A DNA stretch of 64,000 nucleotides from a bacterium (lineage in GTDB: Bacteria > UBA8248 > JACPRG01 > G963555815): positions 1-64,000 of the forward strand of contig CBDHDG010000002.1 in assembly GCA_965261595.1 (NCBI GenBank), in the 5' to 3' direction. A model generated the notes under the pieces. The model did no database searches, was not told where the DNA came from, and saw only the letters and a program-made list of their open reading frames with translations. Numbering within the stretch: the stretch's first letter is position 1; each line of letters starts with the position of its first letter. Made by a program: the position numbers and the translations under genes. Positions 13,217 through 58,196 of this stretch are shown here, in pieces.

Positions 13217-13630
13217 ATGATTCATGGAGAAAGGGGTGTCGCGATGAACGAACAAAAGCAAGAGGGGGCTTTGGCGGAGGGCGCCCGTAGGGCGAACGGA
13301 GCCAAGGCCCCAGGGCATCGCAGTGAGCGGGGTCGGTTCTCCTGCCAGCGCAAGCGGGAGGCGGTCCTGCGTCTTTTGCGGGGCGAGAGCCTGGAGACGC
13401 TCTGCCGCGAGTTGGGCACGACAGCGGCTCGGCTTTCCGCCTGGCGCGAGGCGTTCCTTCGCGGGGGCGAGGCGGCGCTCAAAGCCCGCCCGGCGGATGA
13501 GCGGGACGAGGAGAACGCCCGGCTCAAGGCCAAGGTGGGCGAACTCACGATGGAGGGCGAGGTCCTGCGGGAGAAGATCGACCGCCTGGAGGCCGGCCGC
13601 CCTTTAGCCGGCAGGAGGTGGAGGCGATGA
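13217..13630 (+). CDS. IS3-family OrfA (HTH)
   Basis: RFSCQRKREAVLRLLRGESLETLCRELG...LKAKVGELTME. Confidence 0.85.
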   Translation: MIHGERGVAMNEQKQEGALAEGARRANGAKAPGHRSERGRFSCQRKREAVLRLLRGESLETLCRELGTTAARLSAWREAFLRGGEAALKARPADERDEENARLKAKVGELTMEGEVLREKIDRLEAGRPLAGRRWRR

Positions 13631-18268: not shown

Positions 18269-18270
18269 GG

Positions 18271-21210: not shown

Positions 21211-21214
21211 CCGT

Positions 21215-21964: not shown

Positions 21965-23235
21965 CGAGACTTTCCCATGTCCTTCAGCACCTTGCGCCGC
22001 CTGATTTCAATATCGGCCCTGTCGAGCGCGGGATCGTACGGCGAGAGACTTTCGAGCTTGCGTCTGAGAGATACAGCCTGTTTGGATTCACCCCGGTCGT
22101 GGCCGATAAGGCGCATGTACTTTTCCAAACATTTCACGAAGTCGTTATCGCGTGGCCGCTCGTCAACCCCCATCACCATGGAAAGGACATCGCCGGCTTC
22201 CGCGCCAAAGGTCGCCGCCGACGCTTGTCCGGCGACGATGCGGCCGTTTTCCCGGTCTAAGGCGATAATGTGCTCCGGTCTGACCGTGGTCAGCGCTTGC
22301 GGGCTGTGGGTAGACACAATGAACTGGGCATTCGGGAATGTCCGCGAGAGGTCCGCCAGAATCCGCTGCTGCCATGAGGGATGCAGATGCAGTTCGATCT
22401 CGTCAATCAGGACGACTGCTTCGGAGCTGAGCGGATCCTCAAGATGGGGATTGCCCTGCGCCATGCGCCAGGCGAGGTCGGCCGCGAGCGCCAGGACGAT
22501 GCGATAGCCTCCGCTCAGTTGGTCGATAGAGAGTGCTTCTAACTCATCCTGTTCAGACTCCACGGATACGACGAAACGGAGCGGCCTAAGTTCGATGCGC
22601 GGGTCCGATACTCCAGGTATCATGGACATGATCGCCCGACGAACAGCATCAAGGTCTTTCAGTGGAAAATTGAAATCGAGCCGTTGCTTCTGTTCCCGCA
22701 GCTCTTCGTTTTCTTTGGCATAGAACCACTTGAAGAATTCTCTGAAGTTGGTTCGGGCCGACAGCGCGCCCTCCAGCGCGGCATAGCGCGGGAATTCGGA
22801 CTTGAATCCCCTCCGGCGTCGTGGTTGGTCAAACACAGCGCGGTCGGTGTCGTAAAAAGCAACGATGGGCAAGTCGAGCGGTTGAAACTCCTCCCGATCT
22901 GCGCTGACGATGTTCTCCATCGCTTCCTTCAACTCTCGCCGGACAGTGTGGCGGCGCCCCTGTGGCCCCATAGTTCGCCGCCATGTGATTCCGTCGGCAG
23001 TCGTGAGCTTGATCTGCAAGGATCGCCTTTGACGCCGATCCGTCTTCAGGAAGCCGATCCCCGAAATATCGGGCAGCAAGGTGGGAATACTGCCAAGCCC
23101 CACGGCGATCGCGCTCAGAACGCTGGTCTTACCGTGCGCATTGTCGCCATGGAACACCGCCAAGGAAGAGTCAAGTTGGAGAGCAAGGTGCTCAATCGCC
23201 CGGTAGTTTTCGATTTCTACAGACTTTAGCTTCAC
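21961..23235 (-). CDS. ABC-type AAA ATPase, PtuA-like
   Basis: MKLKSVEIENYR, GDNAHGKTS, QLSGGYR, VLIDEIELHLHPSWQQ, STHSP. Confidence 0.88.
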   Translation of the reverse strand: MKLKSVEIENYRAIEHLALQLDSSLAVFHGDNAHGKTSVLSAIAVGLGSIPTLLPDISGIGFLKTDRRQRRSLQIKLTTADGITWRRTMGPQGRRHTVRRELKEAMENIVSADREEFQPLDLPIVAFYDTDRAVFDQPRRRRGFKSEFPRYAALEGALSARTNFREFFKWFYAKENEELREQKQRLDFNFPLKDLDAVRRAIMSMIPGVSDPRIELRPLRFVVSVESEQDELEALSIDQLSGGYRIVLALAADLAWRMAQGNPHLEDPLSSEAVVLIDEIELHLHPSWQQRILADLSRTFPNAQFIVSTHSPQALTTVRPEHIIALDRENGRIVAGQASAATFGAEAGDVLSMVMGVDERPRDNDFVKCLEKYMRLIGHDRGESKQAVSLRRKLESLSPYDPALDRADIEIRRRKVLKDMGKSR

Positions 23236-23726
23236 GAGCGGACCTCCCTCGCCCTTGGCTCGGTCAGCAGAAACCGCAGTGCCGTCAGCACCCGGCGCGG
23301 GTTTTTGCGGTGCATCGCCATGCCGAGCCAATAGGCGGCCTCCTCGCGTCCCATCGCCTCGATACCCTCTGCCACCGCCCGCATGTTGTCGCGGCTGCGC
23401 ATCGGAGCAAGCGCGCGGAACAAAAGCCCCAACGTCAGCGCAAGATCCTCGTTGAGCGCATAGCCGCGCTTTCTGATGTCCGCGCTCTGGACCGGCTTGA
23501 CGCCGGATTGCGAAAGCCGCTTCAGCACACGGTGTTCGACCAGTTCGAGGTTGCGGCCCCGAAGCCCCGCGAGACGCAGCGCCGATGTCACCTGCGGCGT
23601 GGCTGTCGCGGGCATCTGCCAGATTTCATACTCGCTGCCGGCCGGCCCCTGACGACGCACCCGCAACTCGTACCGGGGTGCGGAGTCCGGCGTCTCGATC
23701 TGGGCGATTCTCTCCAGGCGCGCCAT
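23232..23726 (-). CDS. Small DUF499-associated protein (DUF3780 positional analogue)
   Basis: 164 aa ending GIEAMGREEAAYWLGMAMHRKNPRRVLTALR; directly after DUF499 gene. Confidence 0.65.
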   Translation of the reverse strand: MARLERIAQIETPDSAPRYELRVRRQGPAGSEYEIWQMPATATPQVTSALRLAGLRGRNLELVEHRVLKRLSQSGVKPVQSADIRKRGYALNEDLALTLGLLFRALAPMRSRDNMRAVAEGIEAMGREEAAYWLGMAMHRKNPRRVLTALRFLLTEPRAREVRS

Positions 23727-23727
23727 C

Positions 23728-26700
23728 TCAAGTCTTGACCTCCGCCGTGGCCGACACGTAGGCCGCGCCGCTCGCGAACCGGGCAAGGCTCTCGGTGAGC
23801 TTCTCCGCCGCGTCACCCTGCATCGAGAGACCCTCGACAAAGGTCAACTCGAAACCCGCCTCCAGGTTCTTGGAACTTGCGTCCCGAAGCTGCGGTTCCA
23901 AAAACTCCTTCACCGGCTGGGCGTCCGATACCGGCCCTCGGAACTCCAACTCGAACGATCCACCCTCGCGGGTCTCATAGCCGCCCGTGATCGTGACGCT
24001 CTTGTCCGCCCCGGATACGGCGCCCACGGCGCCGAGAAGCCGGAACGCGTCGCCCGCCTCGAACATGCGGATGGTCAGAACGCCGATGGTCCCGACTTCC
24101 TTCGCCCGGGCCTGCTCCCACAACTTAACCAGCGCCTCTTTGAGAACGCCCTCGGCGGTAAACGAGCCGGGCGCCTCCCCGACAGGATGGCTTCCAACCG
24201 GCTCCGCGTCGGAGCCCACGCCTGGCCCGCCGCCGGGCGTCTCGCCGGATTGGCCTGTCTTTTCTCCCTCCGGGGCCGGCTGCTCGGATTCTCCCGGCTT
24301 CTTCCGTGGCCAGATGCCGGCATTCTTCGCATAGGCCATGGTGAAGACCACGGATTGCTCATCGATCATGATGCCGGCCGCCGGATCGCCCGGCCCGTAC
24401 AGCAAACCTCCGCGTTGGTAAACGTATTCGCCCTGTTCGATGCCGCGCCGTACGCCGCGAATGAAGATGTCGTTGCCGATCAGGATGGGCAGGGCCGGAT
24501 CGCGCCGAAACTCGTCGCGTAGCGCCAGCGTGGTGATTTGACCCCTTTTGAGCGGTGTACGATCGCGCACATAGGCGGGGGAATCCGGTTCGTCCTCGGA
24601 CAGGCGCAGTTTCTTGAGGTCTCGTAATGCCCGCACAATCTGTTGCTGACCTGCGCCGGGCTGCTCGGAGGTGGAATGGATGTCGATCGCCGAGTGGGTC
24701 AGATCGACATCGCTCGCGCCGACCCGGTTGCGGGACGGGTAGAAAACGTGCCGGTAGCACTGTTGAATGGCGATCGCGAGCTCCTGATCGGACCGGGCCT
24801 CCATCTCGCGCACCAGGTCCTGCTGATGCTCCGCCAGATCGATGAGGCGTTCAGGCTTTTTCAGTTCCCGCAGCGCCAAACGATAATCGGTCTTTCGGCG
24901 CATCTCCTCCTTGCGGGCGTCCTCCGCGACCACGAACGCCACATTGTTTCGAAGCACCCGCAAGGCCGATCCTTCCGAGCCTTTCCGGGTGCAAATGCGC
25001 CCGATCAACTCAGGCACGTTCTCGACGGATCCGCCGATGGTCACGCCGTCATAGGCCAGGACGACGAGCTTCGGCCGGCCGTCGCCGACCTCGTCGGGAA
25101 CGTCGAACGGCCCGCCGGGGAAAGATACCGTCTCGAACGTCTTGCCTCCGAATATCTGGCGGATGCGGTCGTTGAGGTGGGCGCGCGCTTCCCCGGCATC
25201 GACGTGGCGTTCCTCGCGCCGGATAATCTGGCGCAGATTGGCCTCGACGAGAAAGCACATCGGCGCAACGGGGCGGTCGTCAAGGTAGGCGGACTCGGCG
25301 ATGAACTTCTTGCGCGCTTCCTCGATAAAGCTGATGTCCGTCGTGGGACCGAGGACCGAATAGCGCAACTGCTCCGGCGAAATCCCCTTGAGCGGATCGT
25401 TGAAGGCGAGCGTGTGCATGAAGATGGTGCGGGCGACGTAGACCGCATACGGCGGCAGGCCGCCGTAATGGGCGGCATCGATCTCCTGCGCCAGCGCCTT
25501 CTTTTCGACCGATCCGGCGGCGACATCGTTGGTGATGGCCGGCACGTAGGCGGACTGCCCGAGACGCGTCACGATCTCCTGGCGGATCGGCTCATGGCCC
25601 GGATCGATATGGTGAAGGTGAATCGAGGTCGCATCTGCGGGCTTTTCCTCCCAAAGATGCGAGATCGTGCGCGCCAGCAGCCGCAGCATGCCGCGCACCC
25701 GCTGAAAATTGCCGAGCGTCGCGGTCTTGCCCGTCAGGGTTTCCAGAACTTCCGGGTGCAGAGGATAACTCGATCGGAAGGTCTCCACGGTCTCGGGCCG
25801 GGCGGCATCATCTGCCAGGGACTCCGCGTTGGCTCCCCAAAGCGCCCGGTAGGCATCCGTAACGCCCGGAATCTTCGCCTCGTCAATGGATTCGAACAGG
25901 CGGCGACGGAGCACCTGAACCGTCTCGTCTTCCTCGGTGGGATTCAACAGCGTCGCCTTGCGCGCCGAGACGCTCTCCGCTTCCGCCATGTGATCGGCGA
26001 TAAACTGGTTTTCTTCGTTATAGGCGTCGGTTGCACGTCCGTCCTTGCCGATTGCCAACGTATAGACGAGGGCGGCCTCAGGCGCGCTTTCGACGGCCTT
26101 GAACAACGAGGTCAGGAACGCCGTCAACTGATCGCGGGCATCCTCGAGGTTGCGTACCTTGCGCAGGTAAACCGACAACTCGTCGAGCAGGATCAGGGTC
26201 GGCTCGCCGCCGAACAACTCGCGCAGGGTCTCGGCGCCGGGCGCGATGCGGCTTTCGTCGCTCTTGCGCACCCGCTCATACCCATCCTTGCCGGCAAGCG
26301 CGTAAGCGATCTCGCCCCAGGGAGTGTACGCGAGAAGACCTTCTTCCATCCTGCGGCCATTGGCCGGATCCGCGTTTTCGCCATCGAAGGCGGCGATGCG
26401 GACGTGGCCTTCCGGCAGAATAGAAGGATCGACAAACTCCGAGACGTTCGACACGCCCTTCATGCCGCGTGCGGCGTGGCACAACGCGATCAGCCCGTGG
26501 GTCTTGCCGCCGCCGTAGGAGGTGTCGAGACGGAAAATCGACGCGACTTCACCGCCCGTGCCGGTCAGCCGACGGCACACATTGGCGAGCAGGTTCTTGA
26601 GGCCCCTTGTGGGATAGGTGTTGGCGAAGAACCGCGCCGGGTCGAGATATTCCTCATTCCCCTTGCCGATGATGACTTGGGCCAGATCAGCCGCGAAGTC

Positions 26701-26772
26701 GGATTCGGTAATCGCGCCCTTGAGAACATCCGCGCGCGGCTGGCAGGTTTCGAATATCGTTGGGACCGTCAT
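23728..26772 (-). CDS. DUF499 AAA+ ATPase
   Basis: SDFAADL, FFANTYPT, TSYGGGKTH Walker A, LILLDEL, SYPLHP, FQRVRGMLRLL. Confidence 0.92.
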   Translation of the reverse strand: MTVPTIFETCQPRADVLKGAITESDFAADLAQVIIGKGNEEYLDPARFFANTYPTRGLKNLLANVCRRLTGTGGEVASIFRLDTSYGGGKTHGLIALCHAARGMKGVSNVSEFVDPSILPEGHVRIAAFDGENADPANGRRMEEGLLAYTPWGEIAYALAGKDGYERVRKSDESRIAPGAETLRELFGGEPTLILLDELSVYLRKVRNLEDARDQLTAFLTSLFKAVESAPEAALVYTLAIGKDGRATDAYNEENQFIADHMAEAESVSARKATLLNPTEEDETVQVLRRRLFESIDEAKIPGVTDAYRALWGANAESLADDAARPETVETFRSSYPLHPEVLETLTGKTATLGNFQRVRGMLRLLARTISHLWEEKPADATSIHLHHIDPGHEPIRQEIVTRLGQSAYVPAITNDVAAGSVEKKALAQEIDAAHYGGLPPYAVYVARTIFMHTLAFNDPLKGISPEQLRYSVLGPTTDISFIEEARKKFIAESAYLDDRPVAPMCFLVEANLRQIIRREERHVDAGEARAHLNDRIRQIFGGKTFETVSFPGGPFDVPDEVGDGRPKLVVLAYDGVTIGGSVENVPELIGRICTRKGSEGSALRVLRNNVAFVVAEDARKEEMRRKTDYRLALRELKKPERLIDLAEHQQDLVREMEARSDQELAIAIQQCYRHVFYPSRNRVGASDVDLTHSAIDIHSTSEQPGAGQQQIVRALRDLKKLRLSEDEPDSPAYVRDRTPLKRGQITTLALRDEFRRDPALPILIGNDIFIRGVRRGIEQGEYVYQRGGLLYGPGDPAAGIMIDEQSVVFTMAYAKNAGIWPRKKPGESEQPAPEGEKTGQSGETPGGGPGVGSDAEPVGSHPVGEAPGSFTAEGVLKEALVKLWEQARAKEVGTIGVLTIRMFEAGDAFRLLGAVGAVSGADKSVTITGGYETREGGSFELEFRGPVSDAQPVKEFLEPQLRDASSKNLEAGFELTFVEGLSMQGDAAEKLTESLARFASGAAYVSATAEVKT

Positions 26773-42655: not shown

Positions 42656-44131
42656 TTATTGCCGGTCGAAAACTGCCTCGAAGCTTGCGAGGGCAGATCG
42701 AAGGTTCTCCATGACCTCTTCAGCCAGCACTTCCGGTTCTGGAAGGTTTTGAAGGTCGGTCATCGAAGAATCGCGGAGCCAGAAGACGTCCAGGCTTGCT
42801 TTGTCGCGCGCCAATAGTTCCTCGCGAGCAAATGTCCGCCAGCGACCATCCGGTGTCTCGTCGCTCCAGGTCGGCTTGCGTTCATGCCGGTTGCCAGGAT
42901 TGTAGCAGGTTACGAAATCCTCGAGGTGGCCATAGGTCAGGGGCTTTTGTTTCAACGTGTGATGAACGTTGGTCCGATAGTCGTAATACCAAACCTTGGA
43001 CGTCTGCGGGTCAGGGCTGGCGGCTCGGTTGTCAAAGAAGATGACATTCGCTTTCACGCCCTGGGCATAGAATATCCCCGTAGGCAGCCGAAGGATCGTG
43101 TGCAGGTCGGTCGTCTGAAGCAGTTTCCGACGGATTATCTCGCCGGCACCACCCTCGAACAGCACATTGTCCGGAATGACGATGGCAGCGCGGCCCGTCG
43201 TCTTGAGCATCGTCTTGCTATGCTGGACGAAGTTCAGCTGCTTGTTCGAGGTTGTCGCCCAGAAATCCTGACGGTTGTAGGTCAGGTCATCTGTTTCATG
43301 CTCCCCTTCGGCATTCGTGAAGCTCATTGAGCTCTTCTTTCCGAAAGGCGGATTTGCCAACACGTAGTCGAAGGTGTCGGATGGTGGAGAAACCAAAGCA
43401 TCGGCGGGGGAAACCAGCGTCTCGCCTGTCATTTTGCCGATTCCATGCAGGAACATGTTCATCAGGCAGAGCCGCCGCGTCCCGGCAACGATTTCGTTGC
43501 CGTAGAATGTCGAGTGCTTGAGGAACGCTCTCTGATCCTTGTCGAGCGAGAAATTCTCTGCATCGGTCAGGAAGTCGTGTACGGCGAGAAAGAACCCGCC
43601 CGTGCCGCAAGCGGGATCGGTAATTGTCTTTCCGGGCTCGGGACGGACGCATTCTACCATTGCGCGGATCAGGGCGCGTGGAGTGAAATATTGGCCTGCG
43701 CCGGACTTTGTATCCTCAGCGTTGCGTTCCAGCAGCCTCTCGTAGATGTCGCCCTTGACATCAGCGTCCAGCGTCACCCATTTGGTGCCGTCTACCATAT
43801 CGATGAGGCGGTAGAGCTTGGCTCGATCGGTAATCTTATTCTGCGCCTTCGTGAAGATCTGGCCGAGCATACCTTTCTGTTCACCCAGCTTACGCAGGAG
43901 CATAATGTAATGAGGCTCAAGCTCCGCGCCCCTCCGGGTGGTCAGGCTGGTCCAATCGCAACCCACTGGGATATCTACGTCACGATTGTAGGGTGGTTCG
44001 GCGTATTCGTACGCCATCTTGAGGAAAATGAGGTAGGTCAGCTGCTCGAGGTAGTCGCCATAACCCACGCCGTCGTCGCGCAGCGTAGTACAGAAGCTCC
44101 AGACTTTCGAAATGATTGACTCTGTGTTCAC
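42656..44131 (-). CDS. hsdM: Type I RM methyltransferase subunit
   Basis: YLEQLTYLIFLKM, GQYFTPR, DPACGTGGF, LANPPFG, LRLPTGIFYAQGV; start abuts IS1380 end. Confidence 0.93.
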   Translation of the reverse strand: MNTESIISKVWSFCTTLRDDGVGYGDYLEQLTYLIFLKMAYEYAEPPYNRDVDIPVGCDWTSLTTRRGAELEPHYIMLLRKLGEQKGMLGQIFTKAQNKITDRAKLYRLIDMVDGTKWVTLDADVKGDIYERLLERNAEDTKSGAGQYFTPRALIRAMVECVRPEPGKTITDPACGTGGFFLAVHDFLTDAENFSLDKDQRAFLKHSTFYGNEIVAGTRRLCLMNMFLHGIGKMTGETLVSPADALVSPPSDTFDYVLANPPFGKKSSMSFTNAEGEHETDDLTYNRQDFWATTSNKQLNFVQHSKTMLKTTGRAAIVIPDNVLFEGGAGEIIRRKLLQTTDLHTILRLPTGIFYAQGVKANVIFFDNRAASPDPQTSKVWYYDYRTNVHHTLKQKPLTYGHLEDFVTCYNPGNRHERKPTWSDETPDGRWRTFAREELLARDKASLDVFWLRDSSMTDLQNLPEPEVLAEEVMENLRSALASFEAVFDRQ

Positions 44132-44847
44132 CCGCATTTCCCATATGGATGATAATTTTTAACGCCCCGAAGGCCGTTTTCTCGTGTAAAATCAAGGTGT
44201 TGGCCTCTCCCTGCCATCATCTTGCGAGGGGACCCGATGGGTGAAGCGAAAAAGAGGCCGTTGAGGCTCCAATTCGACGGTCGGCTCAGGCTGGAGTTTC
44301 ACGGAGCAAAGGTTACGAGTGACGCCGGTTTGCTTGCCTATCGTGAACTGGATGAGGTGTTGGGGCTGACGAAGGCGGCCGAGGGGTTTCTGTCCGATTC
44401 ACGGACGGGCGGGAACACCCGGCACAGCCTCACCGCTTTGGTGCGCCAGTCGGTCTACAGCCGCCTGGCAGGATATAAAGACACCAATGATGCCGAGCGG
44501 CTCTGTGTCGATCCCGCCATGCGTCAGGTGGTTGGGGGGCGAGCGAAGTATCACACCGCTGCCTCCACCAGCCAGATGAGCCGATTCGAGACGCAGACCC
44601 TCACCCGGCCCCTTAACCCCTCAAGGCGCTGAGCGGTCTGCCCGGTGTGTTGGTGGATCGTGTCCGCAAACGCAAGCCGATTCGCAAGCTGATCCTGGAC
44701 ATGGACAGTTCGGTCAGCCCGACCCACGGTGAGCAGGAAGGCTCTTCCTACAACGGCCACTTCGGCTGCACCTGCTATCACCCACTGTTTTGCTTCAACC
44801 AGTTTGGCGATCTGGAGCGGGCGCTGTTGCGCAACGGCAAGGTCCAC
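44131..44847 (+). mobile_element. Truncated IS1380-family element (diverged from 27210-28890)
   Basis: IR CCCGCATTTCCCAT at 44131; transposase from 44237 ([16 protein letters not shown]), frameshift about 44620, cut by IS3. Confidence 0.88.
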
Positions 44848-46252
44848 TCCCCCGCTCTAGGGTTTTGTTGGACACTCGATTGATCCATGATTCATGGAGA
44901 AAGGGGTGTCGCGATGAACGAACAAAAGCAAGAGGGGGCTTTGGCGGAGGGCGCCCGCAGGGCGAACGGAGCCAAGGCCCCAGGGCATCGCAGTGAGCGG
45001 GGTCGGTTCTCCTGCCAGGCGCAAGCGGGAGGCGGTCCTGCGTCTTTTGCGGGGCGAGAGCCTGGAGACGCTCTGCCGCGAGTTGGGCACGACAGCGGCT
45101 CGGCTTTCCGCCTGGTGCGAGGCGTTCCTTCGCGGGGGCGAGGCGGCGCTCAAAGCCCGCCCGGCGGATGAGCGGGACGAGGAGAACGCCCGGCTCAAGG
45201 CCAAGGTGGGTGAACTCACGATGGAGGGCGAGGTCCTGCGGGAGAAGATCGACCGCCTGGAGGCCGGCCGCCCTTTAGCCGGCAGGAGGTGGAGGCGATG
45301 AGTCAGGCCCGCTTCACCTCCACGGGCAGAGCCTACGGCCTGAAGCGGGTGTGCGCCCTTTGGGGCTTGGCGCGCTCCACGGTCTACGCGCAACGGCGGC
45401 GAGAGGCGGTCCCCGTTCATGAACGCCCCACGCCCAATAAGCGCGGCCCTGTGGGCCCGTGCACCGATGCGGAACTCCTCGGCCACATCCGGCAGGTCCT
45501 GGAGGACTCTCCCTTCCATGGCGAGGGCTACCGCAAGGTGTGGGCGAGGCTGCGCTTCGCGGGCATCCGCACCAGCAAGGAGCGGATGCGTCGCCTGATG
45601 CGGGAGGCGGGGCTTCAGGCCCCCCACCGGGTGGGCAAACCCCGAGGTCCCAAGGCCCACAACGGGACCATCCGCACCGAGCGGCCCGACCGAATGTGGG
45701 GCACGCACATGACGACGACGGTGACCACCGAGGAGGGGATGGCCTCGGTGTTCGTGGCGGTGGATCACTGCTCGGTGGACTGCGTGGGGATCCATGCGGC
45801 CAAGAGCGGCAACCGCTTCGAGGCCCTGGAGCCGATCCGGCAGGGGGTCGCCGAGCGCTTCGCCGGCTTGGAGGCGGACGTCGCCGAGGGGCTTAAAGTT
45901 CGTCACGACCACGGCCCCGCCTATCTGTCCGATGACTTTCAGCGGGAGATCGCCTACCTGGGCATGACCAGTTCGCCCAGCTTCGTGCGGGCGCCCGAGG
46001 GAAATGGCTACTGTGAGTGGTTCATCCGCATCTTGAAGGAGAATCTCCTGTGGGTGCGCTCTTTCGCCACCGTAGAGGAACTGCGGTGGGCGCTGCTTGA
46101 GTTCAAGAACCTGTACAACCATCATTGGATTCTCGAGGGCTACGGCTACCGAACGCCGGCCCAGGCAAGGCAGGAAAAACTCGCTCAAGTTGCGGAGGCC
46201 GCATGAGGTCGAATACCCTCACCCGAGTGTCCAATAACCCAGGGGCGGTCCA
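44848..46252 (+). mobile_element. IS3-family element copy 2 (1405 bp), probably inactive
   Basis: Near identical to 13178-14581; extra G near 45018 frameshifts orfA; orfB WGTDMT->WGTHMT. Confidence 0.9.
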
Positions 46253-49917: not shown

Positions 49918-50123
49918 TTTTCTCTCCCTTGATCGTGCGTCCGCAGGCCGGTGCGAAGGCGCGGCCTGGCGGACATCCCGCGGGGCGATGCACCCGGAAT
50001 CGCTGGCGTCTCCAGAAGCAAGCCTGCACGCCGGACGGAGCGGGAGTTCCGGCTGCCGGCGGGTCGAAGGCCGGGCTCCCGGAGGGTGCCCGCGCCGCCG
50101 TCCAGCCATTCCGGAGCACGCCC

Positions 50124-51149
50124 ATGACCGACCCCGACACCATCTCCGCCGACTACACGCTGCGCCCCAGCGAACTCGCCGTCACCCTCGCACTTCTGGT
50201 CGAGGCCCGCCAGCCGACCCTGGAATGGGGACCGCCCGGCACTGCAAAATCGATGATCGCCCGGCAGGTCGCCGCCGATGCCGGCCGCCAGTATGTCGAC
50301 GTCCGGGCGCTCCTGCTCGACCCCGTCGACCTGCGCGGCATTCCGTGGCGCGACAGCGCCGACCGCACCCGCTGGGCGCCGCCGGCCTTCCTGCCGCCCA
50401 CCGACGATCCCGGCCGCTGGCTCATCAACCTGGAAGAGCTGCCGTCCGCGGTGCAGATGGTGCAGGCGGCGCTGTATCAGTTGGTGCTCGACCGCAAGGT
50501 GGGCGAATACGAGCTCCCCGAGGGCGCCTCGCTGATCGCCTGCGGCAACCGCGAGTTCGACCGCGGCGTCGTCCACCGCATGCCGACGCCGCTGGCATCG
50601 CGCTTCGTTCATCTGGAGATCAGGGTCGATGCCCAGGACTGGATCGCCTGGGGGGCGGCGAACGGAATCACGCCCGAGGTCCTGTTCTACATCCAGATGC
50701 GCCCCGACATGCTGCACCTGTTCGATCCCCAGTCGCGCGAGAAAGCGTTTTGCTGCCCTCGGACGTGGGAGATGGTTTCCAACATCGTGAACCGGCGGAA
50801 CGGCCTCGATCCGTCCGTCGAACGCGCGCTGTTCCGCGGCACCGTGGGCGAGGCCGCCGCGGTCGAGTTTTCCGCATTTCTGAAGGTCTGGCGCGAGTTG
50901 CCCCATCCGAGGGCCGTCATCGACGATCCCGAGAACGCCGTAGTGCCGGAGAACGCCAGCGCGCTGATCGCGCTCTGCGGCTCGCTCTACCGCATGGCCG
51001 ACGACATCAACCTCGGCGCCATCGTCACCTACGCCACGCGCCTGCGCCGCGAGATCGGCGAGTTCCTCGTCGGTTCCTGCATCCGCCGCGATCCGGACCT
51101 GCAGCGCTCGCCGGCCTTCATCCGCTGGGCCGCCGCCCGCACCCAGTGA
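50124..51149 (+). CDS. MoxR-like AAA+ ATPase
   Basis: WGPPGTAKS, DPVDLRGIP, LINLEEL, ACGNR, PLASRF, PRTWE. Confidence 0.85.
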   Translation: MTDPDTISADYTLRPSELAVTLALLVEARQPTLEWGPPGTAKSMIARQVAADAGRQYVDVRALLLDPVDLRGIPWRDSADRTRWAPPAFLPPTDDPGRWLINLEELPSAVQMVQAALYQLVLDRKVGEYELPEGASLIACGNREFDRGVVHRMPTPLASRFVHLEIRVDAQDWIAWGAANGITPEVLFYIQMRPDMLHLFDPQSREKAFCCPRTWEMVSNIVNRRNGLDPSVERALFRGTVGEAAAVEFSAFLKVWRELPHPRAVIDDPENAVVPENASALIALCGSLYRMADDINLGAIVTYATRLRREIGEFLVGSCIRRDPDLQRSPAFIRWAAARTQ

Positions 51150-51175
51150 CACCGCCATTTTGGGAGATCGACACC

Positions 51176-52087
51176 ATGGACCTCACCCACGACGCCATGC
51201 TGGTCAGCCTGCGCATCAGCGCCTGGTCGGGCCGGCTCTACGACCGCAAGGCGAGCAACCATGTTGCCGTCCACCATGAGGCCTCCGCCAGCGCCGGGCG
51301 CTACAACAAGTGCCTGCTGCCCAAGGCCGCTTTCGCCGCGCTCACCGCCACCATGAGCAAGGCGAGGAGTTCGCATTACGAGCAGACGCTGCCCTGGGAC
51401 GACCAGGGCAGCCGGCTGCTCACCGTCGCCAACTACGGACACTACATGGAACTCCTGGACGGCCTCCGGGAGCGCATGGTGCGCGAGCGCGCCCGCTTCA
51501 TCGAGGACTACGAGGACAACATCGACCAGGCCCGGCTCGATCTCGGCAAGCTGTTCCGCATCGAGGACTATCCCTCGCAGGAAGCGCTGCAGGGAAAGTT
51601 CGGCATCCGCTACCGCATCACGCCCGTCCCGGACGCCGACCACTTCATGGCGAAGCTCGCCTCGGACGACACCGACCGGGTCAAGCGCGACATCGAAAGC
51701 CAGATCGAGGAACGCCTGCACGATGCCGTGGGCGACCTCTACCGGCGCCTCGGCGAGGCGGTCGAGCGGGTCGGCGACCGGCTGCGCGAGGACGGCGAGG
51801 GCAAGCCGCTGGTGTTCCGCGATTCGATGATCCATAACATCCGGGGCCTGGTCGACGTGGTGCCGCGTCTCAACATCTTCGGCGACGACACCCTGGCCCG
51901 TCTCTGCGAGCAGGTGAAGGAGAAGATCGCCGGCGTCGAGCCGGATTCGCTCCGCCCCTCGCGGACCTTCGATCCCGCTGCCCGCGCCCGCGTAAAGCGC
52001 GACGCCGACGCGCTGATGGAGCAGTTCGCGGGGTATTTCGCGCCTGAGGCCGGGACCGCAGTCGAGTCCGAGCGGAAGGCCGCGTGA
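51176..52087 (+). CDS. DUF3150-like protein
   Basis: MLVSLRISAWSGR..DRKAS, TLPWDDQGSRLL, DYPS, FRDSMI, LNIFGD; between AAA and VWA genes. Confidence 0.6.
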   Translation: MDLTHDAMLVSLRISAWSGRLYDRKASNHVAVHHEASASAGRYNKCLLPKAAFAALTATMSKARSSHYEQTLPWDDQGSRLLTVANYGHYMELLDGLRERMVRERARFIEDYEDNIDQARLDLGKLFRIEDYPSQEALQGKFGIRYRITPVPDADHFMAKLASDDTDRVKRDIESQIEERLHDAVGDLYRRLGEAVERVGDRLREDGEGKPLVFRDSMIHNIRGLVDVVPRLNIFGDDTLARLCEQVKEKIAGVEPDSLRPSRTFDPAARARVKRDADALMEQFAGYFAPEAGTAVESERKAA

Positions 52088-53457
52088 TGGCCGCCCGTGT
52101 GCACAGCGAATCCGCGCGGCGCATCAGCGGTTGCGTGACCGCCTTGCTGCGCGAGCAGCCCTTCTTCGGCAGCCTCGCCTTGAGGCTGCCGATCCGCGCC
52201 GATGCCAGCCGCGAGACCGTGGCCAGCGACGGGCGGGAGATCCGCTATTCGCCCCGGTGGATCGCCGACACCGATGCCCATGTCATCGAGACCGCCATGG
52301 CAAGGATCGTCCTGGCGTGCGCGCTGAAGCACCACACGCGCCGGGGTGAGCGCGATCCGGAGCGCTGGCAGTGCGCCTCCCAGCTGGTGACCCACGGTTT
52401 GCTGAGGGACGCCGGTTTCACCCTGCCACCCGACGCCGAAGCCTGGGACGGCATCAGCGTCGAGCAGGCCTATGACCGCCTGCCGGCGCCGGACCCCGAC
52501 GACGGCGACGGCGACGGCAACGCGCCGTCCGGCGCCGGAGACGCCGGCGCGCCAGATTCGTCACCATCAACTGACTCCGGCGGTGACGATAATTCCGGCG
52601 GGTCCGATGACGGGCCTGGCGACGGGTCGGGCAAAGCGTCGGACAATGGCGATCCGCAGGACGGCGACGGCCAGGATACGGGCCCCGGGGCCGACGCCCT
52701 GCCGAGCCGCGATCCCGCCGGCACCGGCGAGGTCATGGACGCACCCGCCGGTGCCGGGCAGGGCGGCGCCGACCCGTCCCCAGCCGAGATTGCCGAAGAG
52801 GAGCAGGCCTGGGACGAGGCCATGCACCAGGCGGCCAGCCTAGCCAAGGCCCAGGGCAGGATGCCGGGCGCCGTCGAAGAGACGGTCCGGGGCGCCCACG
52901 TCAGCACCGTCGACTGGCGGTCGCTCTTGCGCCGCTACATGACGGACGCCTCGAAGAGCGACTATTCCTGGAGCCTGCCCAACCGGCGCTTCATCGACAG
53001 CGGGTTGTATTTGCCGTCGATCCGCTCGGAGGGCATCGATACGATCGCCGTCATCGTCGACACCTCGGGCTCGCTGCCGGCCAGGACGCTGGCGGAGTTC
53101 TGGGCCGAGGTGCGGGAGGTCACGGCGGAGCTTCAGCCGGAGCGCGTCATCCTTCTGCAGGTCGACGCCGCGGTGCAGGACGCGGCCGAATACGCCGCCG
53201 CCGACCTGCCCGACGAAATCGCGATCAGGGGCCGTGGCGGCACCGACTTCCGTCCGGGCTTTGCCTGGCTCGAAGAGCACGACATCCAGCCCGGCGTCTA
53301 CCTCTACCTCACCGACATGCTGTGTTCGAGCTACCCGGAGGACGAGCCAAGCTTCCCTGTCGTGTGGGTAAATTATGCCCCACCGCCCGGCGACTGGAAC
53401 CGCGAACCCTGGGACGAGCGCATCGACATCGGAACCTCTTCGGGGGCTGCGTCGTGA
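52084..53457 (+). CDS. DUF2201 metallopeptidase-like N-domain + VWA domain protein
   Basis: QPFFGSLAL, VASDG, acidic linker, VDWRSLLRR, IVDTSGS (MIDAS), GRGGTDFRP, YLTD. Confidence 0.85.
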   Translation: MMAARVHSESARRISGCVTALLREQPFFGSLALRLPIRADASRETVASDGREIRYSPRWIADTDAHVIETAMARIVLACALKHHTRRGERDPERWQCASQLVTHGLLRDAGFTLPPDAEAWDGISVEQAYDRLPAPDPDDGDGDGNAPSGAGDAGAPDSSPSTDSGGDDNSGGSDDGPGDGSGKASDNGDPQDGDGQDTGPGADALPSRDPAGTGEVMDAPAGAGQGGADPSPAEIAEEEQAWDEAMHQAASLAKAQGRMPGAVEETVRGAHVSTVDWRSLLRRYMTDASKSDYSWSLPNRRFIDSGLYLPSIRSEGIDTIAVIVDTSGSLPARTLAEFWAEVREVTAELQPERVILLQVDAAVQDAAEYAAADLPDEIAIRGRGGTDFRPGFAWLEEHDIQPGVYLYLTDMLCSSYPEDEPSFPVVWVNYAPPPGDWNREPWDERIDIGTSSGAAS

Positions 53458-53678
53458 GCCGGGCGATATACGGTGCCCCAGCCGAGGCGCTCAGGCAGGC
53501 ACTCGACGCCCTGGCCCGGCTCGCCTTCTGGATATCGTGTACCGCCGACTCCGATCTGCGTCCCGATATCCCGGTGAGCATCCGCAACATGCGCGAGGCG
53601 GCGGCCGCGCTCCGCAACGCCGCGGACGTTCTCGATCTGGCCACCGACCGTGCCCACTCACGGCCGCTCCCCCGCTGA
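53454..53678 (+). CDS. Small hypothetical protein
   Basis: GTGA overlap with VWA gene; 74 aa helical. Confidence 0.45.
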   Translation: MSRAIYGAPAEALRQALDALARLAFWISCTADSDLRPDIPVSIRNMREAAAALRNAADVLDLATDRAHSRPLPR

Positions 53679-53847
53679 CACCTCCGGGGACGGCCGCCGC
53701 CGTTCCGCCATCGCCGCCCATGCCCCGCAACAGCCCCGCCAGGAGCCGGAGCCGGGCCGGGTCCGGGCGGGGCGCGGGACGGCCGGAGAGGGCCGCCTCC
53801 GCCGCACCCGTTCCATCCTTTTCATCACGATATCGAGGGAGATTCGC

Positions 53848-56325
53848 ATGAATCACATCGCCCCCCTGCACGAACCGCTCATCCGGGAGGTTCCGCTGAG
53901 CCGGCTGGCGCTTGCGCCCGAGAACGTGCGCAAGACGCCGGCCGACCCGGTCGCCGAGGCCGAGATGAAGGCCTCCATTGCCACCCATGGCCTGCTGGAG
54001 AACCTGGTCGTTCGCATGGACGGACCGGCCGATGCCGGCGCCTATGCCGTGATCGCCGGCGGACGCCGCCTCGCGGCCATGAAGGCCTTGGCCGAGGACG
54101 GCACGATCGACGCCGACCACCCGGTGCCCTGCCTAGTCGCCGCCGATCCGGCGATGGCGGGCGAGCTGTCGCTGGCGGAGAACATCGTCCGCATCGCCAT
54201 GCATCCCGCCGATCAGGTGATCGCGTTCTCGAAGCTGGCCGACGCCGGCCTATCGGTGGGTTCCATCGCGGCGCGTTTCGGCACGGCCGAGCGCCTGGTC
54301 GAACAGCGCCTGCGCCTCGGCAACGTGGCGCCGGACCTGCTCGACGCCTACCGCGCCCACAAGATCGACCTCGAAGTGCTGAAAGCCTTCTCCGTCACGC
54401 CCGACCATGCCCGCCAGATGGCGGCCTGGGAACAGGTCGCGGGGCAGGGCTACCGGCCCAGCGCGTGGCAGGTGAAACGGTTGCTCACCGAGGAACGGAT
54501 TCCGGGCACCTCGGCGGTCGCGCGCTTCGTCGGCGTCGAGCCCTATGAGGCCGCCGGCGGCAAGGTGCTGCGCGATCTCTTCTCGAACGACGACGACAGC
54601 GCCGTCTGGTTCGACGACCCGGCGCTCCTGAACAATCTCGCCATGGAGAATCTCCGGGTCTTCAAGGACGAGCTCGAGACCCGCTGGAAGTGGGCCACGG
54701 CCATGGTCGAGGTCGACTGGAACACCACCGCCCGCTACGGGCGGATCTATCCCGAGCCGGCCGAGCGCACGCCGGAAGAGCAGGCCGAGATCGAGAAGCT
54801 GGAGGCACGCCAGGGCGTCCTCGCGGAGCTCGACGACGATGCCTGGACCGAGGAGCTGGTCCGCGAGGCCGAGACCATCGAGGAACGCCTCGACGAGATC
54901 GAGGGCGGGATCGAGGCCCGCGCCGTCTACAGGCGCGAGGATTTCGGGATCGCCGGCTGCATCGCCACCATCGGACGCGACGGCACGCTCCAGGTCATCC
55001 ATGGCCTGGTCCGGCCCGAGGACATGCCGAAGGAACCGGAAGCCGCCGGAAACACCGGTGCCAGATCTGGTGACGGCAATGACGGCGACAGCCATACCGC
55101 CGAAGCCGGGACCGGAACCGATGCCGGCCACATCTCCGTCCCGGCAATGTCCGAGCCCATGAACCTGCCGAAGGACCGCGAGGCCGAGGCGCGCAAGGAA
55201 GCGGGCGTCGGCATCGGACTTGCCGACGATCTGCGGTCGATCCGGACAGCGCTCGTCAAGGCGAAGCTCGCCGGGGACTTCGAGGCCGCCTTCGACCTCA
55301 TGCTGTTCCAGCTCGGCCGGTCCGTCTTCACCGACGGATACAAGGCGCACGCGCTCGACATCGCGGTCCGCGAGACCGCCGATCGGCCGACCATGCGCAT
55401 GAACGACGCCGACTTCGCCGCCTGGAGCCCCGGCGAGGCCATGCTGGAGGACCGCTCCGGTCTCAGCTTCGACTGGCTGGAGATCGAGGACGACGGCGAA
55501 TCCTTCGCGGCGCTGCGCGCGCTTTCGCAGGCCGACAAGCAGGCGCTGTTCGCCGCCTGCGTCGCGCGCACGGTGAAGGGGCAGCTCGCCTTCGAGCCCT
55601 TGGCACGCCCGGAACTGGAGGTCACGGTCGCCCGGCTCGATATCGACTTCGCCAGCCATGTGCGCCCCACGGCGGACATGCTGTGGTCGCGGATCAACAA
55701 GGGTCGGATTCTCGACATCGCCCGCTCGGTGCTGAGCCCGGCCTGGGCCTCGGCGCGGTCGAAGAACAAGAAGCCCGATCTCGCCAAGGCGATGGAGAAG
55801 GCCTTCGCGGCCGGCGATCCGCCGCTCGGGCTACATGCCGACGACCATGCGGCGGCGCTCGCCTGGATGCCGCCGGGTTTCGCGGCGTTCGATACCGGCC
55901 GCGTGGAGGACGAGCCGGAAGACGCCGCGGCGGCGGAACCGGCGGCGGAGGCATCCGGTCCCGACCCCGAACCCGTTGCCGGCCCCGCCGCCGATGCGGG
56001 GAGCCCGGAGACGCCCGCCGATCCGCCGCGCACGAACTCCGTGGTCGAGAGCGTCGAGGCGCCGGCGGTCGCCGAACGCCGGGCCGCCGAACGTGCCACC
56101 GGCAACGGTCATGCCACGCCGGCTGCTCCGGAGACCGATTCCGCCGCCGGCGACCACGGGAGCGATGCCAGGGTGGACGGTCCCGAGTCCGGAGCCTCCG
56201 AACCGGCCAAGCCGGCGGATATCGCCGCCCGCCATCCCGGACCGGTGAACGGCCACGATGCCGGCGACGGGCTCGACATTCCCGAGTTCCTGCGCCGCGT
56301 ACCGGGGCATTCCGCCGTCAACTGA
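53848..56325 (+). CDS. ParB/RepB/Spo0J-family protein with long disordered C-terminal tail
   Basis: PENVRKT, SIATHGLLENLVV, IAGGRRLAA, SLAENIVR..MHPADQ, HTH IAARFG. Confidence 0.9.
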   Translation: MNHIAPLHEPLIREVPLSRLALAPENVRKTPADPVAEAEMKASIATHGLLENLVVRMDGPADAGAYAVIAGGRRLAAMKALAEDGTIDADHPVPCLVAADPAMAGELSLAENIVRIAMHPADQVIAFSKLADAGLSVGSIAARFGTAERLVEQRLRLGNVAPDLLDAYRAHKIDLEVLKAFSVTPDHARQMAAWEQVAGQGYRPSAWQVKRLLTEERIPGTSAVARFVGVEPYEAAGGKVLRDLFSNDDDSAVWFDDPALLNNLAMENLRVFKDELETRWKWATAMVEVDWNTTARYGRIYPEPAERTPEEQAEIEKLEARQGVLAELDDDAWTEELVREAETIEERLDEIEGGIEARAVYRREDFGIAGCIATIGRDGTLQVIHGLVRPEDMPKEPEAAGNTGARSGDGNDGDSHTAEAGTGTDAGHISVPAMSEPMNLPKDREAEARKEAGVGIGLADDLRSIRTALVKAKLAGDFEAAFDLMLFQLGRSVFTDGYKAHALDIAVRETADRPTMRMNDADFAAWSPGEAMLEDRSGLSFDWLEIEDDGESFAALRALSQADKQALFAACVARTVKGQLAFEPLARPELEVTVARLDIDFASHVRPTADMLWSRINKGRILDIARSVLSPAWASARSKNKKPDLAKAMEKAFAAGDPPLGLHADDHAAALAWMPPGFAAFDTGRVEDEPEDAAAAEPAAEASGPDPEPVAGPAADAGSPETPADPPRTNSVVESVEAPAVAERRAAERATGNGHATPAAPETDSAAGDHGSDARVDGPESGASEPAKPADIAARHPGPVNGHDAGDGLDIPEFLRRVPGHSAVN

Positions 56326-56411: not shown

Positions 56412-58196
56412 ATGAACCAGATTGCCAGAACGCCGCCGGCGAATATCCGCGCCCGCATCCACGACAACGCGTTGAAGCGCGTCACGAGGGTTTACGCATC
56501 GACGCTCGCCGACGTGCTGACCGAGACGTTGCAGAATTCACGCCGCGGCGGCGCTACCGGGGTCCGCATCTCCGTCGGCACGCTTACCGACCAGCTTGGC
56601 GGCGAAACGCGTTTCACCGTCACCATCGCCGACGACGGAACCGGCATCGCCGATCCCGCCGTCCTGCTGAGCTTCGGCGAGAATGGCTGGTCCGACGACC
56701 TCGTCCGCCGCGAGGACGCCGCCGGCTTCGGTTTCGCGAGCCTGTCGCGCCGCGGCTGCACGGTCGCCTCGCGGCCGCGTTCGCCGGACGGCCATACCTT
56801 GCCCGGCTGGCGGGTCGATCTCGCCCCGGAACATTTCCTGGGTGAGGCGGAGGCCGAGGTTCACGCCGATGACAGCGCGCCGTTCCCTCATGGCACGTCG
56901 ATATCGTTCGAAGCCACCGAATCCGCCGCCGCGATCCGCAATGCGGCCGTGAACGCCGCACGCCACTATCCGTTGCCCGTCATGTTCGACGGGATTCCCC
57001 GCACCGAGCCCGGCGGGGAACAGCTCGACCGCCGGGCCTTCCTCGACGGCGCGATCCATGCCGAGCCGTGGCGCGGCCTCGCCTTCGGCGTCTTCCGGAA
57101 CCGCCATCGCGGCTACAACGACCCCGATCTCAATTTCTTCGGCCTCACCGTGCCGCTCAGCCTGCCCACGGTCGAGAGCGTCCATGGCGGCATCTGGAGC
57201 GTTCGCGCCGATATCGGCGACTGCCCCGATCTGGAACTGGTGCTGCCTGCGCGCAAGGAAGCCGTCGAGAACGATTTCCTGAAGGAGATGCGGAGTGCCG
57301 CCCGGCTTGCCATCTACCGCGCCATGGCTGCCGATCCCGAACCGCGTCCCGCATACGCCGACTGGAAGAGCGCGCGGGACGCCGGCATCGACATGGCGCC
57401 GCCGCCGGCCGTCCTGCGGCCCTGGCGCCCCGGCGTCGCCGATGTCGACGACTGGCGCGAGCCGCCCAAGCTCGCCGCAGCCGTCCGCGAGCCGCTGGTC
57501 ATGGCCTGCGATCCGGAACCGCCCGAGGCGCAAGCGCTCTGGCGCGCCGCCGAACGCGCCGGCATCGCATCCCGCCTGTTCGAGGCCGACCGGCGGCTCG
57601 ACGGGTATGACTGGCATGACGAGATCCATCGGATTACCGGCATCGAAACCGAGATTGCCGCTGAAGTCGCCACCGCGGTCGCCGCAGAGGCGGCTTGGCT
57701 GCCGCTCGACGATTTCCCGCTGCCTGAGCGGGCCGGTGCGCCTGCGGCGCCTTTGCCCGGACGTCCGCAAGCCATCCGTATGACCCTTGCCGTCACGCCC
57801 GCGCGCGGGCCGGGCCGGACACTCGATCTCCCGGCCGATCTCGTGTTCGCGGGCGAGGCCTGGTCCTGGGTCGCCGAGGCCCTGCCGCTGGTGACCGGCG
57901 ACAGCGACTTGCAGCCGCACCAGCTCGCGGAGCTTCTGCGCGCCGGCTTCTTTTCGCCGTCGGACGATGCGGATTCGGACTCCTGGGAGACCCAGCGCGA
58001 CCGCTTCGACCAGGAAGCCTCGCATATAGCCATGAGGCTGCTCGCGTCCGATGACGAGGCCAGAATCGCCTCGATCGCCGAGGCGGTGCGGCGCGAGCTG
58101 TTCTGGCTCGTGCCCCGGGACCGGCCCGTGGAGATTTCCATTTGCCGGCCCGAGGTCCGGGTCACCCTTCGCGATGCCTTGGAGGACGCGTCATGA
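56412..58196 (+). CDS. GHKL/HATPase-fold ATP-binding protein
   Basis: ETLQNSRRGGAT (N box), IADDGTGI (G1), AAGFGFASL (G2), GTSISF. Confidence 0.8.
   Translation: MNQIARTPPANIRARIHDNALKRVTRVYASTLADVLTETLQNSRRGGATGVRISVGTLTDQLGGETRFTVTIADDGTGIADPAVLLSFGENGWSDDLVRREDAAGFGFASLSRRGCTVASRPRSPDGHTLPGWRVDLAPEHFLGEAEAEVHADDSAPFPHGTSISFEATESAAAIRNAAVNAARHYPLPVMFDGIPRTEPGGEQLDRRAFLDGAIHAEPWRGLAFGVFRNRHRGYNDPDLNFFGLTVPLSLPTVESVHGGIWSVRADIGDCPDLELVLPARKEAVENDFLKEMRSAARLAIYRAMAADPEPRPAYADWKSARDAGIDMAPPPAVLRPWRPGVADVDDWREPPKLAAAVREPLVMACDPEPPEAQALWRAAERAGIASRLFEADRRLDGYDWHDEIHRITGIETEIAAEVATAVAAEAAWLPLDDFPLPERAGAPAAPLPGRPQAIRMTLAVTPARGPGRTLDLPADLVFAGEAWSWVAEALPLVTGDSDLQPHQLAELLRAGFFSPSDDADSDSWETQRDRFDQEASHIAMRLLASDDEARIASIAEAVRRELFWLVPRDRPVEISICRPEVRVTLRDALEDAS

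Follow-up and report, generated by a model that had tools for sequence, protein, structure and literature searches.

Why should a DNA-binding protein of a mobile element end in a peptide that looks like the C-terminal tail of the cell division protein FtsZ? The question is raised by one gene on a stretch of 64,000 nucleotides (nt) of bacterial DNA (contig CBDHDG010000002.1, positions 1 to 64,000, forward strand; the whole stretch is called the window here), which lies on an integrative and conjugative element (ICE) and encodes a protein assigned below to the HerB (ParB2/YfjB) family. The open frame spans 53650-56325 on the forward strand, the likely start is the ATG at 53848 (MNHIAPL...), and the resulting protein of 825 amino acids (aa) ends in VPGHSAVN, directly before the stop codon at 56323-56325. 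A preliminary description of the window had reported a ParB-like protein with a linker and the peptide LDIPEFLRR eight residues before the stop; the open reading frame (ORF), the translation, and the coordinates agree with it (Table 1).

The terminal motif and its likeness to the FtsZ tail

The conservation of the motif was analyzed in a set of 121 proteins, comprising the window protein and 120 close homologues at 66 to 98% identity. The pattern [LMIV][DESNQ][IVL]P.F[LMIV][RK] was present 3 to 9 aa from the end in 101 of them; the 20 others consisted of seven proteins that were one residue off within the motif and 13 with unrelated, frameshift-like, or truncated ends. Similarly, 73 of 79 related loci from species genomes carried the motif, and the other six were truncated matches. 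At the 71 loci that were scored, P, F, L, and the first R were each found in 71/71, the x position between P and F was E in 68/71, and D or E stood ahead of the hydrophobic residue in 69/71. The hydrophobic residue itself was I at 59 loci, V at 7, and L at 5, the second R was present in 49/71, and the residue two before (L in the window protein) was free.

In a 38-sequence alignment, P812, F814, and L815 were invariant, and I811, E813, R816, and R817 reached a conservation of at least 0.92. The mean column conservation was 0.85, 0.75, and 0.88 in the folded parts, 0.48 in the linker, and 0.92 in the motif. A motif that is kept while the linker diverges was the outcome that the preliminary description had set in advance as a test, and the invariance of P, F, L, and R at all 71 loci, together with these column values, bears it out. 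The 116-aa linker (A29, P17, E14, G11, D10, S8, R7, and one K) is presumed to be disordered, judging from its composition and low conservation, and between it and the motif lie N-G-H-D and then G-D-G.

The resemblance could be due to chance and inherited without function in a young clade. Indeed, the 36 rows nearest to the window protein form one well-supported clade, so that part of the conservation is shared descent. However, this clade spans 57 to 96% identity, and P, F, L, and R are the same throughout it beside a freely diverging linker; furthermore, the tip is kept in six diverged copies within one genome. A motif devoid of function is hardly credible in view of these data, and we conclude that the terminal motif is more than chance.

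The host genome (6.17 Mb) was then considered as a whole, counting stop-to-stop frames of at least 150 aa. The pattern [DEN][IVLT]P.[FYW][LIM][RK] was found within 15 aa of the stop in 7 of 16,337 frames, namely in FtsZ and in six copies of the HerB-like gene, of which the five outside the window are 61 to 65% identical to the window copy and end in FLRRA. FtsZ being the only other host protein with this peptide at its C-terminus, whatever receives the FtsZ tail would be the default partner of the tip.

FtsZ was found in all of the 16 host genomes examined, with a typical tail in 15 of them and a deviant one, reading P-V-P-T-H-L-R-R, in the remaining genome. The conserved positions of the 16 FtsZ tails ([DN]-[IVT]-P-x-[FY]-[LI]-[RK]) coincide with the conserved positions of the HerB-like tail, and in both the x position holds a polar or small residue. 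The FtsZ tail reads L-D-T-P-T-F-L-R-N-K-A-D in the window host, F-D-I-P-T-F-L-R-K-R-M-D in the hosts from Binatia and Thermodesulfobacteriota, and L-N-I-P-A-F-L-K-R-Q-A-N or L-D-I-P-A-F-L-R-R-Q-A-N in the alphaproteobacterial hosts. Thus, the likeness to the FtsZ C-terminal peptide that the preliminary description had pointed out stands, both in the shared positions and in the near-uniqueness of the pattern among host frames. It comprises the core D/E-I/V-P-x-F-L-R/K, the location a few residues from the C-terminus, and the variable linker ahead. On the other hand, the HerB-like motif sits on a DNA-binding protein and not on a tubulin fold, its x is fixed as E, and the residues after R-R in the window tail are unlike the Q-A-N, K-A-D, or R-M-D ends of host FtsZ. 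We think that the most likely receptor would be FtsA, whose gene adjoins ftsZ in 16/16 host genomes checked.

The FtsZ of the window host is itself of a different type with a short linker, and this host belongs to a phylum with only 51 species genomes. Its gene (L001, 1339-2523, reverse strand) encodes a second, internal tail-like motif, E-D-L-D-I-P-T-N-I-R-R, about 35 residues before the terminal E-L-D-T-P-T-F-L-R-N-K-A-D, and the same two-motif arrangement is present in the related genome behind L094. Metagenome-assembled genomes with the labels Alphaproteobacteria, Binatia, Thermodesulfobacteriota, Gammaproteobacteria, and Gemmatimonadota contain members of the clade of the window protein, and a single genome often has several copies. 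The window gene is 94 to 96% identical to copies in genomes labelled Alphaproteobacteria (L002, L004); such near-identical copies across phyla reflect either very recent transfer or a binning error.

Family of the protein and distribution of the tail

The window protein was compared with known ParB-like proteins. BLASTP against the ParB of the E. coli IncF leading region gave a match at 3e-45 (aa 12-703 against 36-666), phrog_7783 matched aa 12-669, and tblastn against plasmids matched at least 5,000 records, mostly of conjugative enterobacterial plasmids, with the best rows covering 78 to 81% of the query. The homologous gene of an E. coli IncF plasmid sits between ssb and psiB, and its product was taken as the ParB2/HerB orthologue by this position (ssb-parB2-psiB, PMC8406263), not by comparison with the F sequence. 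According to that paper, ssb, parB2, psiB, and psiA form a cluster, ParB2 is translocated via the F-type secretion system, and deletion of parB2 affected neither plasmid transfer nor the SOS response (PMC8406263).

A 2026 preprint renames YfjB (ParB2) as HerB and describes it as a dimer with a ParB-type CTP domain (D1), a helix-turn-helix (HTH) domain (D2), and two new domains, D3 and D4, of which D4 provides the dimer core and nucleoid binding (PMC13370423). D4 also has a conserved basic patch and associates non-specifically with DNA. Induction of HerB follows immediately upon transfer, and the protein gathers in foci on the nucleoid and changes the transcription programme of the host; the foci and the reprogramming, like the D4 dimer and CTP binding, are reported for F HerB only, and HerB acts only in the earliest post-transfer stage (PMC13370423). 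The same source lists 429 HerB homologues, a few of them in phages and the others on alpha-, beta-, and gammaproteobacterial plasmids.

At the N-terminus of the window protein, Pfam ParB_N matched aa 13-81 and the NCBIfam ParB models matched aa 13-250, in each case under the cut-off. A sequence search of the PDB returned Spo0J, Noc, and ParB chains over aa 12-199 and nothing beyond ParB N-domains. G71, R73, R74, and N112 are invariant across 95 family sequences, and the GGRR box aligns with the same box in the E. coli IncF protein; the limits of D1 were transferred by alignment from the published domain description (PMC13370423). Judged by its sequence, the window protein is an ICE-borne HerB homologue from the ParB domain to D4. 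By analogy with F HerB, CTP binding, dimerization through D4, nucleoid foci, and host reprogramming are candidate properties of it.

Other ParB-like families were set aside. A canonical partition ParB of the ParABS type does not fit, as TIGR00180 scored 32.4 bits against a cut-off of 58.45 and the C-terminal half is a 450-aa D3-D4 region of the HerB type. The model of the PRTRC-system ParB (TIGR03734) scored 59.5 bits against a cut-off of 278.6 and matched its N-terminal 150 positions only, and the NCBIfam model of Noc reached 39 bits against a cut-off of 315. No ParA-type family was matched by Pfam among the 29 window ORFs scanned, a subset of the window ORFs, in agreement with the earlier remark that no parA adjoins the gene. 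The idea of a ParB for ParA-independent segregation, which had been attached to that remark, has to be given up, since the protein belongs to the HerB family, known for nucleoid binding and host reprogramming and not for partition.

The window protein thus shares with HerB of the F plasmid and its homologues the four-part architecture ending in W-x-P-x-G-[FM], neighbors of the leading-region type, a conjugative carrier, and the lack of a ParA partner. It differs in its carrier, an integrative element of uncultured bacteria as opposed to the conjugative plasmids of HerB, and in its end, since it adds an acidic arm of about 125 aa with an FtsZ-type tip, neither of which the IncF protein has. Across 95 family sequences, W673 and G677 never vary and the conservation of P675 reaches at least 90%, and many members stop a few residues later. 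The E. coli IncF homologue ends about 30 aa after the conserved W-x-P segment without linker or motif. In the enterobacterial protein, W-x-P-x-G-[FM] reads W-V-P-G-W-M, which resembles the tail motif of some distant members; in HerB, the segment is inside the C-terminal stretch that is missing from the cryo-EM map (PMC13370423).

The tail-less IncF homologue bears on the possibility that the C-terminal peptide serves as a signal for type IV secretion, by which the protein would accompany the DNA into the recipient. For ParB2 of pED208, translocation by the F-type system was at 10^-3 recombinants per donor, the highest value quoted among six maintenance proteins tested (PMC8406263), and the F/G-type transfer genes TraC, TraK, and TrbI are present in the window. 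If pED208 ParB2 is built like the enterobacterial IncF homologue, however, transfer needs no motif. Tail-bearing relatives are also found on plasmids with different transfer systems or none, and the same peptide is present on phage proteins. We therefore consider a secretion signal very unlikely.

To follow the tail across the wider family, the 150 best representatives after clustering at 50% were inspected; in 18 of them, a basic FtsZ-like motif lies within 40 residues of the end. Ninety of the 150 were dropped because they were too short or too long, had no G-x-R-R box or W-x-P-x-G segment, or had Arg-rich ends. The 60 rows that were kept fall into 28 without a tail, 24 with [LIV]-P-x-[FW]-[LM] within 25 residues of the end, and eight with a long tail lacking the motif there; by eye, three of these eight carry it further in. 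Among the distant members, most tails are acidic arms that have no basic residue following F-L, ending for example in E-L-P-A-F-L and then neutral or acidic residues. Many distant members (P0159, P0175, P0189, P0243, L183-L188, L131) end in A-A-E, with or without L-P-x-F-L just ahead, so that A-A-E is another conserved feature of the extreme C-terminus.

A FastTree phylogeny was computed from 95 rows with the proteins cut before the linker, giving local supports only. All rows of the well-supported 36-row clade around the window protein are of the basic type. On this tree, at least five changes have to be assumed for the basic state, and many for presence or absence of a tail. According to this tree, the arm with a hydrophobic tip is an old module that was gained or lost repeatedly, and the FtsZ-like form is fixed in the window clade.

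The acidic nature of these tails allows an explanation without any host partner, in which arm and tip fold back on the DNA-binding surface of the same protein (for example, the D4 basic patch, or the ParB domain). There they would imitate DNA and control DNA binding or the closing of the clamp, and the FtsZ likeness would be a coincidence of short-motif chemistry. In line with this, the linker is strongly acidic (E14 and D10 versus R7 and K1), the acidic arms of distant members end in [DE]-L-P-A-F-L followed by acidic residues, and a basic patch with non-specific DNA association is described for D4 of HerB (PMC13370423). However, the R-R fixed after F-L in the window clade would repel a basic patch, and many family members work without a tail (28/95, as well as the E. 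coli IncF protein). Moreover, the same nine-residue peptide occurs on unrelated proteins without HerB domains, favoring a partner in trans, and folding back is in our opinion quite unlikely.

The peptide on viral proteins and the partner of the tip

Viral sequences were searched with a DNA pattern for D-I-P-[AED]-F-L-R in GC-rich codons, which gave 46 loci in 33 sequence clusters. The second R was present in 13/33 clusters, and L before D together with RR in 9/33, although neither feature was part of the pattern; a rough estimate, made without computation, is that fewer than one cluster with both L and RR would be expected by chance. MT-A70 DNA methyltransferases of three kinds carry the peptide, as do a DUF1376 and a DUF3310 protein, HTH proteins, and small ORFs to which no family was assigned, and one named example is a protein of Bradyrhizobium phage ppBeUSDA76-1. 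The motif is located in low-complexity, Pro/Ala/Glu-rich stretches at N-termini, in linkers, and at C-termini. Since the peptide recurs on unrelated proteins, a common partner in trans is most likely.

The pattern D-I-P-A-F-L-R-K was found at 93 viral loci, of which a handful are relevant, none of these with a Pfam name. Among them, a small viral ORF without a Pfam family (L284, 1492-1821, reverse strand) ends in ...LDIPAFLRKQAD (...D-D-V-P-L-D-I-P-A-F-L-R-K-Q-A-D), and its last 12 residues, L-D-I-P-A-F-L-R-K-Q-A-D, are identical to the C-terminus of a gammaproteobacterial FtsZ. Most of the 93 loci were rejected as tail mimics, as they represent an unrelated, conserved 27-codon frame. This frame (...F-D-I-P-A-F-L-S-K-A) is nearly unchanged in about 45 of the loci L219-L298 and is probably a conserved non-coding or RNA element. 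When the last 25 aa of the window protein were compared with phages by tblastn, all matches were weak, and one of them lay on the strand opposite to an annotated gene.

Most carriers that could be identified are DNA-associated (MT-A70 methyltransferases, DUF1376, HTH, and ParB-like proteins), and the wider HerB family tolerates non-basic tails. Both observations are compatible with docking of the tip on a different conserved hub of the host, such as a component of the replisome or the nucleoid, shared with the phage carriers. This is unlikely, since FtsZ is the only protein of the host genome with the pattern at its end, apart from the HerB-like copies. Two specific hubs were set aside on motif grounds only: the sliding-clamp motif needs a hydrophobic residue where the HerB-like motif has E, A, or D, and the tip of SSB needs the free C-terminal carboxylate of its Phe. 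The C-terminal tip of SSB is a terminal hydrophobic I-P-F peptide on a disordered acidic arm, which serves as a partner hub and can fold back on SSB. The HerB-like tail is similar in its acidic arm with a short hydrophobic tip, and ssb adjoins the family gene in IncF plasmids. However, the SSB tip must be the extreme C-terminus, whereas the HerB-like motif has an extra residue between P and F and L-R-R after them, and it is internal in some carriers.

The FtsZ C-terminus is also a ClpXP determinant. The tip may accordingly be a handle for regulated proteolysis, a tether to ClpX or another AAA+ protease that allows quick removal after transfer and resembles the FtsZ tail because that tail is itself a protease site. 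A need for HerB in the earliest post-transfer stage only (PMC13370423) and the presence of the motif on many mobile-element proteins with plausibly transient activity are consistent with this, and a review on bacterial degrons contains the FtsZ peptide string. The motif is, however, internal or N-terminal in several carriers, which is unusual for a C-terminal degron and acceptable for a tether. Furthermore, conservation falls on the hydrophobic core that FtsZ-tail receptors use, and not just on the terminal basic part. We regard a protease handle as decidedly unlikely.

The explanation that we favor, tentatively and with somewhat less than even confidence, is that the tip would be a portable mimic of the FtsZ tail that docks on FtsA or another tail receptor. 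In such a mechanism, a HerB-type clamp would bind the recipient nucleoid right after transfer, as F-plasmid HerB does, and the window clade would have acquired a floppy acidic arm of about 125 aa tipped with [DE]-[IV]-P-E-F-L-R-R. The tip would bind the pocket or pockets that receive the FtsZ tail, most likely on FtsA. A DNA-loaded dimer would present two tips, and foci of dimers would form a multivalent FtsA sink. As one possible outcome, the tip would compete with FtsZ for its membrane anchor, and division would be delayed during establishment of the element; as another, HerB-bound DNA would be tied to the membrane-proximal division machinery. Division is inhibited by overproduced C-terminal fragments of FtsZ. 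For protein fragments in general, an inhibitory action is possible (PMC10769210). Taken at the level of sequence, the data suggest, without proving it, that the element plugs into the host division machinery.

Several observations weigh against mimicry of the FtsZ tail. The 95 aligned family members comprise 42 with a basic tail, 20 with a non-basic one, 28 without a tail, and five with a long tail lacking the motif, and on the tree the FtsZ-like basic form is derived and not ancestral. If one partner serves all tails, it would have to tolerate acidic residues where FtsZ has R or K. In the 16 genomes, the HerB-like tail keeps D/E-I-P-E-F-L-R-R and does not co-vary with the FtsZ tail of each host. 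The nearly invariant E at x (68/71) stands where FtsZ tails have A or T; it may indicate a partner that is different from, or narrower than, that of the FtsZ tail. In viral contigs, the mycobacterial-type FtsZ tail motif was detected at 11 loci, none of them tail-like, and it is not obvious why phage DNA methyltransferases and replication proteins should bind FtsA.

More broadly, copying of the FtsZ tail could be a general strategy of mobile elements. A portable mimic of 8 to 9 residues would then have been grafted onto many unrelated proteins, among them HerB-like clamps of ICEs and, in phages, DNA methyltransferases, proteins of replication, regulators, and small early gene products, all of which would dock on FtsA or other tail receptors. 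The HerB-like clamp would be a multivalent competitor of FtsZ for its membrane anchor and exert a mobile-element form of nucleoid occlusion, holding back division during establishment of the element. This extension is possible but doubtful.

Among known systems, SlmA and Noc, the latter itself ParB-like, are similar as DNA-bound proteins that couple the nucleoid to division. Noc uses a membrane-binding N-terminal helix. SlmA acts through binding the FtsZ tail (PMC4117426), whereas the window protein would imitate that tail. Phage inhibitors of division provide another parallel, as mobile-element proteins aimed at the FtsZ ring. They act on FtsZ itself or need ZipA, and to our knowledge none has been described as a copy of the FtsZ tail. 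Lambda Kil and other phage or prophage inhibitors disturb FtsZ-ring assembly (PMC11762379).

In the literature covered, which leaves out most subscription journals, no account of FtsZ-tail mimicry by ParB, phages, or mobile elements was found, and searches with the peptide strings returned FtsZ papers only. The word FtsZ is absent from the main text of the HerB preprint (PMC13370423). The preliminary description had called the whole arrangement undescribed; this is upheld for the tail, for which no report was found, and does not apply to the protein family, which is in print as HerB (PMC13370423). Thus, the family is known and the tail on it is new, possibly one case of a wider, undescribed mimicry. 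HerB-type proteins, matched in at least 5,000 plasmid records, rank with the most widely distributed gene products of conjugative elements, and their roles are only starting to be understood. If the mimicry is true, it would link DNA transfer to the control of cell division, a mechanism for which we found no precedent in the literature on plasmids, ICEs, or phages. If the peptide also works on its phage carriers, it would define a new class of bacterial short linear motifs and a natural set of FtsZ-tail competitors.

Features of the gene and its neighborhood

Table 1. Features of the HerB-like gene, its neighborhood in the window, its copies in the host genome, and viral loci with the peptide
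Feature	Position	Strand	Basis or remark
HerB-like (ParB2/YfjB family) gene	53848..56325	+	825 aa + stop; ORF, translation, full-length homology
D1, ParB N-terminal CTP-binding-type domain, aa 12-135, GGRR at aa 71-74	53881..54252	+	Pfam, NCBIfam, and PDB matches
D2, HTH DNA-binding region, aa 136-235	54253..54552	+	Limits inferred from E. coli IncF alignment and PMC13370423
D3 and D4, aa 236-682, family-specific C-terminal half	54553..55893	+	Family-wide conservation; aligns to IncF protein
W-M-P-P-G-F, aa 673-678, conserved family-wide end of folded part	55864..55881	+	95-sequence conservation
Acidic Ala/Pro-rich linker, aa 683-798, presumed disordered	55894..56241	+	Composition, conservation 0.48
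N-G-H-D, aa 801-804, conserved patch 5' of motif	56248..56259	+	N801 0.95, G802 0.89, D804 0.87 (38 sequences)
LDIPEFLRR, aa 809-817, FtsZ C-terminal-peptide-type short linear motif	56272..56298	+	Sequence, conservation
VPGHSAVN + stop, 8-aa extension confined to closest relatives of window protein	56299..56325	+	In 16% of 38 aligned sequences
GHKL-type (HATPase_c-like) gene, downstream conserved neighbor	56430..58196	+	Pfam HATPase_c 20.9 bits, under cut-off; in 73/79 related loci
ATPase, upstream trio	49929-51149	+	phrog_1297; in 47/79 related loci
ORF of no named family, upstream trio	51170-52087	+	In 47/79 related loci
DUF2201 metallopeptidase/VWA protein, upstream trio	52084-53457	+	DUF2201_N, DUF2201; in 62/79 related loci
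SNF2 helicase with PLD domain, DUF1156 methyltransferase, DUF499 protein cluster	15083-26772	-	
Type I HsdM gene	42656-44137		
IS3 copies	13217-14535 and 44993-46206		
HerB-like copies in host genome	C4 919250-921562; C5 1050215-1052536; C6 1322107-1324419; C7 57180-59273; C7 1328120-1330432		Window copy on C2
Viral [L]-D-I-P-[A/D/E]-F-L-R-R loci	L150, L162, L171, L169, L164, L161, L163, L146, L151, L157, L145, L175, L142, L147, L177		

The element in the window encodes TraC, TraK, and TrbI of F/G-type transfer, three tyrosine integrases, RadC, DUF2958, and a methylase/helicase, and by gene content alone the last three make the neighbors of the HerB-like gene leading-region-type. The downstream GHKL ATPase was considered as an obligate partner of the tail and rejected, as the two can occur separately: pCAR3 has the ATPase without the motif, and the reverse is true of the Yoonia and Ponticoccus plasmids. 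In the 393-nt spacer upstream of the HerB-like gene, the single-strand fold is no better than that of shuffled sequences (z 0.25 and 0.09), and no promoter-like hairpin was seen.

Modules of a HerB-like gene, a GHKL ATPase, and a methylase/helicase are present six times in the host genome. Copies of TraC that are 100% identical lie at several contig ends, indicating that the assembly breaks in repeated conjugative elements. The cluster with the SNF2 helicase, the DUF1156 methyltransferase, and the DUF499 protein resembles a defence island that the element carries.

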